From: Escherichia coli
Lineage (GTDB): Bacteria > Pseudomonadota > Gammaproteobacteria > Enterobacterales > Enterobacteriaceae
Reading direction: 5' to 3' (one strand)
DNA: 64,000 nt
Assembly: GCF_003334255.1 (NCBI RefSeq)
Contig: NZ_QOWU01000024.1
Shown: positions 28,555 to 41,511 of the stretch, one piece after another
How positions within the stretch are numbered: the stretch's first letter is position 1
Layout of the letters: each line of letters opens with the position of its first letter
Made by a program: the position numbers and the translations under genes
The notes under the pieces: generated by a model
Seen by the model: the letters and a program-made list of their open reading frames with translations, nothing else
Databases searched by the model: none
Told to the model about the DNA's origin: nothing

Positions 28555-29301
28555 TTATTTATTCCCCATAATGATATTAAGCGTTTTCTGATCGGGCAAC
28601 CCCACGGCCTGTTGTAGCGTATTTTCCTTACTCATGTAATAGATAGCCGGCGTGACATTTGCCCCCAGATCGTCCATCAGTTTCTCATTGTCACTTAACA
28701 CTTTCATTTGCTCTGTACTTACGTTTGCAGGCACGTTTAGCTTAAGCTTGCCACCAGAGGCTTCATATTGTTGCCAGGTTTTTGCGGGATCTTTGGAGGC
28801 AAGAATTGCCGCTGCTGTCGCCGGGCTTTCTGGCTTGATAACCCCAACCAACAATGTTCTTAATTGCACTTTGCCAGAATCTACCCACGGGCGCGCCTGC
28901 TGCCAGAACTGTTTACAATATGGGCAGAACGGATCGGCGAAGACGTAGACAATGACCGGCGCATCTTTTTTACCGTCGAGGAGCCAGTGGGATTGTTCCA
29001 TCCGTTGCCACATTTCGCGTCCGGCTGGTGCGTAAATTTCTTTTTCGATAAGTGTGTTACTCAGGTTTTCACCTTTCTCGTTGTACATGTAACCAGAGAT
29101 AGCGTGCTTACCATCTGGAGTCAGGTAGATGGTGACGCCCATATCCTGATACTTTCCGAGATAACCTTTCATTCCTCCGGGGGCATCGAATGTTTTGATG
29201 ATTGTAATGCCCTGTTTTTCAATCGCTTTTACTGGAGCAGGAAGTTCCTCTGCGAAGACGATTGCAGGAAGCAGAGCCAGTAAAAGTATCTTTTTTAACA
29301 T
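28555..29301 (-). CDS. dsbG: Periplasmic thiol:disulfide interchange protein
   Basis: Translation from [17 protein letters not shown] (248 aa precursor); CPYC active site; track ORF extended 20 codons upstream. Confidence 0.93.
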
Positions 29302-29672
29302 TAATTTGTCCTTTTCAGTCAGTGCAAAAGTCGAGTAAAAGGCATAACCTATCACTGTCATAGGTAAGAGCTTAGATCAGGTGATTGCCCTTTGTTTATG
29401 AGGGTGTTGTAATCCATGTCGTTGTTGCATTTGTAAGGGCAACACCTCAGCCTGCAGGCAGGCACTGAAGATACCAAAGGGTAGTTCAGATTACACGGTC
29501 ACCTGGAAAGGGGGCCATTTTACTTTTTATCGCCGCTGGCGGTGCAAAGTTCACAAAGTTGTCTTACGAAGGTTGTAAGGTAAAACTTATCGATTTGATA
29601 ATGGAAACGCATTAGCCGAATCGGCAAAAATTGGTTACCTTACATCTCATCGAAAACACGGAGGAAGTATAG

Positions 29673-30236
29673 ATGTCCTTGATTAACACCAAAATTAAAC
29701 CTTTTAAAAACCAGGCATTCAAAAACGGCGAATTCATCGAAATCACCGAAAAAGATACCGAAGGCCGCTGGAGCGTCTTCTTCTTCTACCCGGCTGACTT
29801 TACTTTCGTATGCCCGACCGAACTGGGTGACGTTGCTGACCACTACGAAGAACTGCAGAAACTGGGCGTAGACGTATACGCAGTATCTACCGATACTCAC
29901 TTCACCCACAAAGCATGGCACAGCAGCTCTGAAACCATCGCTAAAATCAAATATGCGATGATCGGCGACCCGACTGGCGCCCTGACCCGTAACTTCGACA
30001 ACATGCGTGAAGATGAAGGTCTGGCTGACCGTGCGACCTTCGTTGTTGACCCGCAGGGTATCATCCAGGCAATCGAAGTTACCGCTGAAGGCATTGGCCG
30101 TGACGCGTCTGACCTGCTGCGTAAAATCAAAGCAGCACAGTACGTAGCTTCTCACCCAGGTGAAGTTTGCCCGGCTAAATGGAAAGAAGGTGAAGCAACT
30201 CTGGCTCCGTCTCTGGACCTGGTTGGTAAAATCTAA
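29673..30236 (+). CDS. ahpC: Alkyl hydroperoxide reductase, peroxiredoxin subunit C
   Basis: 187 aa [23 protein letters not shown]...; peroxidatic Cys in FTFVCPTEL; highly biased codon usage. Confidence 0.97.
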
Positions 30237-30480
30237 ATTTCCTTCGTCTTTCACGCCATAGCGGCGTTGGCGTCGCCCGCTCACCCCGGTCACTTACTTG
30301 TGTAAGCTCCCGGGGATTCACAGGCTAGCCGCCTTGCTCTGACGCGAAATACTTCGGAAATTCACCTAATTCTTCGGGTGCTGCGGCACCCGATTTTCTT
30401 CCCCGCACCATGATGCAAGCTGCATCCAGGTAGCCGCAGAGGCCGCTTGCATGATGATGTTTAAAGCCCAGGAGATAAAC

Positions 30481-32046
30481 ATGCTCGACACAAATATGAA
30501 AACTCAACTCAAGGCTTACCTTGAGAAATTGACCAAGCCTGTTGAGTTAATTGCCACGCTGGATGACAGCGCTAAATCGGCAGAAATCAAGGAACTGTTG
30601 GCTGAAATCGCAGAACTGTCAGACAAAGTCACCTTTAAAGAAGATAACAGCTTGCCGGTGCGTAAGCCGTCTTTCCTGATCACCAACCCAGGTTCCAACC
30701 AGGGGCCACGTTTTGCAGGCTCCCCGCTGGGCCACGAGTTCACCTCGCTGGTACTGGCGTTGCTGTGGACCGGTGGTCATCCGTCGAAAGAAGCGCAGTC
30801 TCTGCTGGAGCAGATTCGCCATATTGACGGTGATTTTGAATTCGAAACCTATTACTCGCTCTCTTGCCACAACTGCCCGGACGTGGTGCAGGCGCTGAAC
30901 CTGATGAGCGTACTGAACCCGCGCATCAAGCACACTGCAATTGACGGCGGCACCTTCCAGAACGAAATCACCGATCGCAACGTGATGGGCGTTCCGGCAG
31001 TGTTCGTAAACGGGAAAGAGTTTGGTCAGGGCCGCATGACGTTGACTGAAATCGTTGCCAAAATTGATACTGGCGCGGAAAAACGTGCGGCAGAAGAGCT
31101 GAACAAGCGTGATGCTTATGACGTATTAATCGTCGGTTCCGGCCCGGCGGGTGCAGCGGCAGCAATTTACTCCGCACGTAAAGGCATCCGTACCGGTCTG
31201 ATGGGCGAACGTTTTGGTGGTCAGATCCTCGATACCGTTGATATCGAAAACTACATTTCTGTACCGAAGACTGAAGGGCAGAAGCTGGCAGGCGCACTGA
31301 AAGTTCACGTTGATGAATACGACGTTGATGTGATCGACAGCCAGAGCGCCAGCAAACTGATCCCAGCAGCAGTTGAAGGTGGTCTGCATCAGATTGAAAC
31401 AGCTTCTGGCGCGGTACTGAAAGCACGCAGCATTATCGTGGCGACCGGTGCAAAATGGCGCAACATGAACGTTCCGGGCGAAGATCAGTATCGCACCAAA
31501 GGCGTGACCTACTGCCCGCACTGCGACGGCCCGCTGTTTAAAGGTAAACGCGTAGCGGTTATCGGCGGCGGTAACTCCGGCGTGGAAGCGGCAATTGACC
31601 TGGCGGGTATCGTTGAGCACGTAACGCTGCTGGAATTTGCGCCAGAAATGAAAGCCGACCAGGTTCTGCAGGACAAACTGCGCAGCCTGAAAAACGTCGA
31701 CATTATTCTGAATGCGCAAACCACGGAAGTGAAAGGCGACGGCAGCAAAGTCGTTGGTCTGGAATATCGAGATCGTGTCAGCGGCGATATTCACAACATC
31801 GAACTGGCCGGTATTTTCGTCCAGATTGGTCTGCTGCCGAACACCAACTGGCTCGAAGGCGCAGTCGAACGTAACCGCATGGGCGAGATTATCATTGATG
31901 CGAAATGCGAAACCAACGTGAAAGGCGTGTTCGCAGCGGGTGACTGTACGACGGTTCCGTACAAGCAGATCATCATCGCCACTGGCGAAGGTGCCAAAGC
32001 CTCTCTGAGTGCTTTTGACTACCTGATTCGCACCAAAACTGCATAA
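30481..32046 (+). CDS. ahpF: Alkyl hydroperoxide reductase, flavoprotein subunit F
   Basis: Translation from [17 protein letters not shown] (521 aa); CHNC and CPHCDG redox motifs, FAD GSGPAG motif. Confidence 0.96.
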
Positions 32047-32075: not shown

Positions 32076-32108
32076 AGCCGCCGGGGTCAAACCTGGCGGC
32101 TTTTTTAT
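32076..32108 (+). terminator. Rho-independent terminator after ahpF
   Basis: agccgccgggg...cctggcggc followed by ttttttat. Confidence 0.7.
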
Positions 32109-41218: not shown

Positions 41219-41511
41219 TGGCAATCCTCCCATGGCAGAGCCGGGATACCGCTGGCGCGTGCCAGCAGGGCTTCCAGTCGTGCACGTAAAATGCAGTCCA
41301 GTGCGCCTTTGTCATCGACATTCAGCTGTACGCCGCGCACGTTGTAGCGGGCGAGAACGTCCAGAATGGTGGTGCGAATTGCATCGCCAAACTGTTTCTC
41401 AACGCTGCTATTGATTTGCAGGTCGATATCCTGCGTATCGAGTGGGGCGATGCGTATCATCACATCCCCAGACTCAAGGGTGCCTGCAACGGCGGGCTGG
41501 TTTATTTTCAT
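41215..41511 (-). CDS. citD: Citrate lyase acyl carrier protein (gamma subunit)
   Basis: 98 aa [24 protein letters not shown]...; 4-nt overlap with citE. Confidence 0.93.

Follow-up and report, generated by a model that had tools for sequence, protein, structure and literature searches.

A mosaic of an ERIC repeat, a probably leaky terminator and an RNase III processing hairpin in the ahpC-ahpF spacer of Escherichia coli

In E. coli, hydrogen peroxide at low levels is scavenged mainly by AhpCF. AhpC is required in large excess over its reductase, AhpF, and the AhpC protein is found in excess over AhpF. The spacer between the two genes bears on how a single operon can supply its two partners in unequal amounts. 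We analyzed this spacer in a 64,000-nucleotide stretch of an E. coli genome (contig NZ_QOWU01000024.1 of assembly GCF_003334255.1), referred to below as the window, in which the gene order is dsbG (minus strand), ahpC, a 244-nt spacer, ahpF and uspG. The ahpC coding sequence (29673–30236, plus strand, 187 aa), taken from the open reading frame list and the RefSeq annotation of an identical sequence, ends with the stop codon TAA at 30234–30236. The ahpF coding sequence (30481–32046, plus strand, 521 aa) begins with an ATG at 30481, which is also the RefSeq start. The spacer thus delimited (30237–30480, 244 nt) has boundaries that agree with RefSeq. It is made up of three separate modules, namely an ERIC repeat, a probably leaky terminator and an RNase III site. 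We consider it probable, at roughly 85%, that these are independent RNA modules, transcribed together as a mosaic, and that they jointly uncouple the expression of ahpC from that of ahpF. As such, it illustrates how unequal output of two partners can be obtained from one operon by a leaky terminator combined with stabilizing RNase III processing.

Window positions 29428–30528 are identical to positions 638700–639800 of E. coli K-12 MG1655 (NC_000913.3), without a single difference, so that a K-12 coordinate equals the window coordinate plus 609272. A first-pass annotation of this DNA had described inverted repeats in the spacer. These repeats are real: both lie within 1 nt of the positions it gave, and the sequence is better folded than shuffled sequence. 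catgatgcaagc (30409–30420) and gcttgcatgatg (30445–30456) are complementary at 11 of 12 positions, with one G.G mismatch, and constitute the core of an inverted repeat with 21-nt arms (30406–30426 and 30439–30459) that are 81% complementary. gtgctgcggcaccc, found at 30378–30391 after a correction of 1 nt, forms the upper part of a stem of eight uninterrupted base pairs (30374–30381 paired with 30386–30393). When native folding energies were compared with those of dinucleotide-preserving shuffles, the z-score was −2.2 for the whole spacer, −3.8 for the segment containing the ERIC repeat (30235–30365), −5.2 for the terminator hairpin, which was equaled by none of 200 shuffles, and −2.5 for the segment containing the larger hairpin (30401–30463), referred to here as hairpin 2. 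When the spacer is folded as a whole, its minimum-free-energy structure places the three modules side by side, and no pairs form between them. An Rfam scan of 29000–31500 at a permissive E-value gave no above-threshold match in the spacer; weak minus-strand matches to V_AS5 and CssrA over the ERIC repeat scored far under the gathering scores and were rejected.

The 5′ half of the spacer is occupied by one 127-nt imperfect palindrome (30236–30362, minus strand), whose first base is the final A of the ahpC stop codon and which is predicted to form a single long interrupted hairpin (−46.1 kcal/mol). The sequence of primer ERIC1R is present at 30300–30321 on the plus strand (20 of 22 positions, two mismatches) and that of primer ERIC2 at 30278–30299 on the minus strand (21 of 22 positions, one mismatch). 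Both primer sequences were confirmed in the published ERIC-PCR literature, and neither is matched in shuffled sequence. The ends carry the 7-bp inverted repeat AATTTCC/GGAAATT, described as an ERIC feature by Delihas (PMC2229807). On the left, the element adjoins the stop-codon TA. Both the right flank and the "empty" allele are diverged, so that no clean TA duplication is readable. In a sensitive blastn search of 5426 complete E. coli genomes, copies were detected at 41233 places, with copies in all genomes and a median of 8 detected per genome. The ahpC copy aligns end to end with those at rpsB-tsf, 3′ of ybiT, at ybhI-ybhJ and at ardC-mobH. By its inverted repeats, fold, primer matches and dispersed copies, the element at 30236–30362 is a canonical ERIC/IRU, a textbook member of a family that was reportedly described by Sharples and Lloyd in 1990 and by Hulton and colleagues in 1991; the ahpC-ahpF locus is presumably listed in the early ERIC/IRU catalogues. 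It shares with the family the length of 127 nt, the imperfect palindrome, the central inverted repeat covered by ERIC1R and ERIC2, the 7-bp terminal inverted repeats, a transcribed intergenic site, several dispersed copies per genome and the occurrence of internally deleted short forms. No structural difference from the family was found; the ahpC copy adjoins a stop codon and is polymorphic among E. coli lineages. The ardC-mobH copy (L088:601–701, E. coli AVS0754) is located inside an apparent integrative or conjugative element. Plasmids carry 31 ERIC matches; ERICs are therefore able to travel on mobile DNA.

The second module is an intrinsic terminator of ahpC (30374–30400, plus strand), identified in a terminator scan. 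Its stem, TCGGGTGC/GCACCCGA, has 8 bp, of which 6 are G-C pairs, and is closed by the 4-nt loop TGCG and followed by the tail TTTTCTT (−16.6 kcal/mol). Term-seq of K-12 by Adams et al. 2021 (PMC7815308, Supplementary file 1) mapped RNA 3′ ends in the same sequence context at 639668 (score 17950) and 639670 (score 7690). On conversion, these in vivo ends fall at window positions 30396 and 30398 on the plus strand, the third and fifth positions of the U-tract tail. The table of Rho-termination regions in the same study (PMC7815308) has no entry starting with 6396. The first-pass annotation had proposed a partial terminator between ahpC and ahpF and had named RNA 3′ ends in the spacer as its test. 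Both the ends and the terminator exist, the latter as the gtgctgcggcaccc hairpin, to which that annotation gave little attention, with its Term-seq ends and the compensatory changes described below; the 30408–30460 hairpin that had mainly been put forward for this role is a different element. Since the U-tract is interrupted (UUUUCUU), the 30396/30398 ends could in part reflect exonuclease trimming back to the hairpin. The ends were labeled "orphan" in the Term-seq data because they lie 160 nt past the stop codon, a distance that is due to the ERIC repeat.

A strong orphan end at such a distance (PMC7815308), preceded by a terminator hairpin and a U-tail, would also be expected if the 160-nt ahpC 3′ UTR, made up of ERIC and terminator, were released as a 3′-UTR-derived regulatory RNA or sponge. 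We regard this as highly unlikely. The content of such an RNA would be a polymorphic repeat, its U-tail is short, it has no known processing 5′ end, and in the literature searched we found no paper that ties ahpC to Hfq or to RIL-seq 3′ UTR RNAs.

Spacers between ahpC and ahpF were gathered at 80 loci from a species-level genome collection. Nearly every Enterobacterales spacer in this set has the terminator hairpin. It is retained even in minimal spacers of 68–80 nt (Pantoea, Erwinia, Providencia, Brenneria and Arsenophonus), with the ahpF ATG following about 20 nt later. In an alignment of 21 Enterobacterales spacers, 94.7% of the cells are paired, and 4 of the 9 pairs have changes on both sides, including the compensatory variants GGGUGC/GCACCC, GGAUGC/GCAUCC and GGCUGC/GCAGCC. 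The alignment has a covariation score of 0.267, compared to 0.133 in shuffles (0 of 500 reached the observed value) and at most 0.044 in slid controls. Among 46 loci from more distant Proteobacteria, 26 have a comparable hairpin followed by a T-run in the ahpC-ahpF interval. Judged from these comparisons, the terminator is ancient and its structure has been maintained in evolution. In having a G+C-rich hairpin and a U-tract that separate a strongly expressed first gene from a weaker second one, 3′ ends inside the U-tract and a distal gene supplied by read-through, it resembles other intra-operon partial terminators. It differs from them in the interruption of its U-tract and in the 65-nt processing hairpin that the Escherichia/Citrobacter/Enterobacter clade adds 3′ of it; in Pantoea, Erwinia, Providencia and Brenneria, unlike this clade, the Shine-Dalgarno sequence lies directly 3′ of the terminator. 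We also considered whether the U-tract decayed when hairpin 2 was acquired; this idea is unconvincing, as the AUUUUCUU tail is shared by Pantoea Mb-10, which lacks hairpin 2.

The third module, hairpin 2, is an imperfect stem-loop of about 56 nt (30405–30460, plus strand; −23 kcal/mol) built from the 21-nt arms noted above, which provide the extended double-stranded helix, about two turns long, expected of an RNase III substrate. This is the hairpin emphasized in the first-pass annotation, which overlooked that an RNase III processing site had been published here. In the data of Gordon et al. 2017 (PMC5371410), with NC_000913.3 as the alignment reference, 639695, "Intergenic (ahpC-ahpF)", ranks second in strength among the novel RNase III sites, with a coverage of 4 reads in the wild type and 3598 reads in the rnc mutant (a ratio of about 900). 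This coordinate corresponds to window position 30423, in the upper 5′ strand of hairpin 2. The same study (PMC5371410) reports that purified RNase III cleaves ahpC-ahpF RNA in vitro and that the half-life of ahpC mRNA is about 14 min in the wild type and about 6 min in the rnc mutant, with the stability of ahpF unchanged; the stabilized transcript is named as ahpF in its abstract and as ahpC in its results text. The in vitro template spans window positions 30163–30922 and thus includes the ERIC helix too. For this reason, it is the RNA-seq dip at 30423 that assigns cleavage to hairpin 2. The 3598 reads in the rnc mutant lie downstream of the terminator, so read-through into an ahpCF message does occur. 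From these data, and from the position of all mapped promoters upstream of ahpC, we infer that the terminator acts with partial efficiency and that read-through feeds ahpF.

Among the sites of Gordon et al. 2017 (ahpC-ahpF, pflB and yajQ), the hairpin described here is the same ahpC-ahpF locus, without any difference. The shared features are arms of about 21 nt in an imperfect hairpin, a loss of coverage that depends on rnc, cleavage in vitro and stabilization of the upstream product by a remaining 3′ hairpin. Our comparison adds that hairpin 2 is single-copy, is confined to one enterobacterial clade and has sequence-invariant arms without covariation. With one copy per E. coli genome, it is not another dispersed repeat, a possibility that was also considered. 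It is present only in the Escherichia/Citrobacter/Enterobacter/Leclercia/Superficieibacter group, always between the terminator and the Shine-Dalgarno sequence, and spacers that contain it have a terminator-to-ATG distance of 84–91 nt. In 13 spacers of the Escherichia/Citrobacter/Enterobacter clade, the arms are nearly invariant and the apex is variable. A search for covariation in these 13 spacers found zero compensatory changes, and the few substitutions present break pairs. As no covariation was found, the comparative data neither prove nor disprove the helix. The same fold is also predicted in six other genera, and the proposed structure of hairpin 2 draws on its energy, the invariance of its arms and the RNase III experiments in the literature. 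The near-invariant arms could have a sequence-specific role beyond RNase III, for example as a target for a protein or small RNA. The G.G mismatch low in the stem (30412/30453, alignment columns 13 and 60) is kept in all 13 spacers and could be a determinant of the position or strand of the RNase III cut.

Another reading of hairpin 2 had been translational control, in which the 30405–30460 hairpin or a neighboring helix sequesters the ahpF ribosome-binding site and limits initiation. The hairpin is indeed near the Shine-Dalgarno sequence AGGAGA (30470–30475, plus strand, 5 nt before the ATG), and a perfect helix of 7 A-U pairs, formed by AUGUUUA (30457–30463) and UAAACAU (30476–30482), could enclose it and engage the A and U of the start codon in pairing. 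However, hairpin 2 ends at 30460, 10 nt 5′ of the Shine-Dalgarno sequence, which lies outside it and in predicted folds is unpaired or contained only in a weak, non-conserved helix. The A-U helix is the sole helix touching the start codon, and it is absent from Citrobacter, Enterobacter and Leclercia spacers that retain hairpin 2. The region 30445–30500 is no better folded than shuffles (z = +0.26). Moreover, RNase III destroys hairpin 2 on essentially all read-through RNA, as the wild-type and rnc read counts indicate (PMC5371410). The earlier suggestion that the 30408–30460 hairpin occludes the ahpF start is thus not supported, and we give translational control very little credence; hairpin 2 is better read as the RNase III processing site.

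The start codon itself was also considered. Upstream of its ATG, the ahpF frame stays open as far as ATGATGATG at 30451, and a start there would yield 531 aa. An N-terminally extended AhpF from this ATG was rejected. The upstream ATGs (30451–30459) lie in the 3′ arm of hairpin 2, lack a Shine-Dalgarno sequence and are out of frame in Citrobacter, and the ATG at 30481 is therefore the real start of ahpF. A promoter scan of the spacer found no sigma-70-like site. On inspection, the TTGCAT at 30447–30452, a candidate for an ahpF-specific promoter within hairpin 2, has no −10 element at a workable spacing and was rejected. The three mapped promoters of the operon are all upstream of ahpC (Conway et al. 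2014, PMC4161252).

The contribution of the ERIC repeat can be judged from its distribution among strains. The full 244-nt spacer is present in 1763 of 5423 E. coli genomes, and a 128-nt spacer without ERIC in 1112 of the 5423, O157:H7 strains among them. A 170-nt spacer, with the ERIC reduced to its outer 53 nt as a short hairpin, probably accounts for about 2550 of the 5423 genomes, a count obtained by subtraction, with at least 1512 confirmed directly. The ERIC, which takes up half of the spacer here and went unrecognized in the first-pass annotation, is truncated or missing in about two thirds of E. coli genomes. At the 3′ end of the spacer, 110 nt comprising the terminator and hairpin 2 are identical in the 244-, 170- and 128-nt alleles, from which it follows that the ERIC is not needed for the function of the remaining spacer. 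The ERIC at ahpC is probably a dispensable passenger.

Full ERICs occupy the same position after ahpC in an Enterobacter, in Citrobacter werkmanii, in Superficieibacter and in one metagenome-assembled genome. The Superficieibacter electus copy (L018:2064–2190) is 95.3% identical to that of K-12 (121 of 127 positions), compared to identities of 66.8% at ahpC third codon positions and 74.4% in the non-ERIC part of the spacer; the same-site ERICs in the three other taxa are 77–84% identical to the K-12 copy. The high identity between Escherichia and Superficieibacter could be due to selection, to recent lateral exchange or to repeated insertion of one subfamily. Other Enterobacteriaceae have REP-like palindromes (e.g. 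GCCGGATGGCGCGATGCTTATCCGGCCTAC) in place of the ERIC (L012:2065–2170, L010:2065–2105 and L015:2065–2115). Small repeats thus seem to have landed repeatedly in the ahpC-proximal part of the spacer, the terminator-proximal part being stable.

A role for the ERIC has a precedent in Yersinia, where, according to De Gregorio et al. 2005 as summarized by Delihas 2008 (PMC2229807), an ERIC has an orientation-dependent effect on the stability of the flanking mRNA. By analogy, ribosomes terminating on ahpC would unwind the ERIC stem and thereby uncover a site for RNase E, and the full, short and empty alleles would differ in ahpC mRNA stability. Because the ERIC begins on the stop codon, its left arm must be covered by the terminating ribosome. 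The occupation of the same site in four other genera, with one copy at 95% identity where ahpC third positions are at 67%, is also in keeping with a function. However, the element is missing from 1112 genomes and probably truncated in about 2550 while the remaining spacer is unchanged, and K-12, which has the full ERIC, has a long-lived ahpC mRNA (about 14 min). As far as that summary describes them, the Yersinia ERICs resemble the ahpC copy in being co-transcribed between two genes of one operon, directly after a stop codon; a stability effect is reported for the Yersinia elements and not for the ahpC copy, whose strain polymorphism argues that it is dispensable. We therefore consider a functional ERIC at this locus unlikely and favor the passenger. 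It is similarly doubtful, taken as a whole, that the three alleles (full ERIC, 53-nt remnant and none) alter ahpC mRNA stability or the AhpC:AhpF ratio among lineages, that the hairpin 2 arms act sequence-specifically and that the 95% ERIC identity stems from selection or exchange.

The independence of the modules also bears on whether the terminator is regulated. In an attenuator, the ERIC arm or hairpin 2 would pair alternatively with the terminator, and peroxide, a ribosome or a protein would switch termination. The short direct repeats AATACTTCGG and AATTCTTCGG, which flank the ERIC end and the terminator, speak for it. Against it, the modules fold independently, and the spacer has no Rfam cis-regulatory match, two results that also tell against the attenuator offered by the earlier annotation as an alternative to a partial terminator. 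The terminator stands in the same context in alleles without ERIC, and it is present in genera without hairpin 2, where the Shine-Dalgarno sequence follows directly. There is no conserved leader peptide: the small open reading frame at 30411 (MMQAASR*) is not conserved in the compared spacers and was discarded. Of the hallmarks of an attenuator, a riboswitch or a translational operator, the analysis found no mutually exclusive structures, leader peptide, RNA family or conserved start-codon helix in the spacer. A regulated attenuator is accordingly given hardly any weight.

Taken together, these modules suggest the following course of expression, in which the structures and their conservation come from the present analysis, and the 3′ ends, the rnc-dependent processing and the stability effect from published data. 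Transcription from the promoters 5′ of ahpC would run through ahpC and the ERIC, ahpF having no mapped promoter of its own. The ERIC, as a passenger, would at most lengthen the ahpC 3′ UTR by a long hairpin. At the terminator (30374–30400), part of the polymerases would stop and yield a monocistronic ahpC mRNA ending at 30396/30398. The remaining polymerases would continue into ahpF, such that ahpC message exceeds ahpF message. The read-through RNA is then cut in hairpin 2 by RNase III, separating the cistrons and leaving ahpC with a protective 3′ hairpin that slows its decay. AhpF would be translated from an accessible Shine-Dalgarno sequence, and transcription of the operon would end at the strong terminator at 32076–32108. 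In this manner, the modules would set the AhpC:AhpF protein ratio.

Each of the three modules belongs to a known class, and two of them have already been reported at this exact locus in K-12; literature searches linking ahpC with ERIC returned nothing relevant. The main value of the analysis lies in a corrected first reading of the spacer, in which the terminator is the small hairpin and the large hairpin is a processing site rather than a translational operator. The allele frequencies in 5423 genomes, the covariation of the terminator, and the clade restriction and invariance of the RNase III hairpin may be new, if incremental. The 95% identity of the Superficieibacter ERIC to that of K-12, against 67% at ahpC third codon positions, may also be new, as may the repeated occupation of the stop-codon-proximal slot by ERIC or REP elements.

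Two further features were noted in the surroundings of the operon. The intrinsic terminator at its end (32076–32108, plus strand), found in the terminator scan, has a 10-bp stem with 8 G-C pairs followed by TTTTTTAT; it is strong and is arranged back to back with the end of uspG, which converges on the operon. At the other side, the gap between dsbG and ahpC contains an Rfam match to the enterobacterial sRNA STnc70 (29435–29528, plus strand; 42.7 bits, gathering score 40), with a hairpin and a U-run at its end. A published Term-seq "orphan" 3′ end at K-12 position 638796, equivalent to window position 29524, falls inside this match. A small RNA encoded on the same strand as ahpC thus appears to end 149 nt 5′ of the ahpC start.
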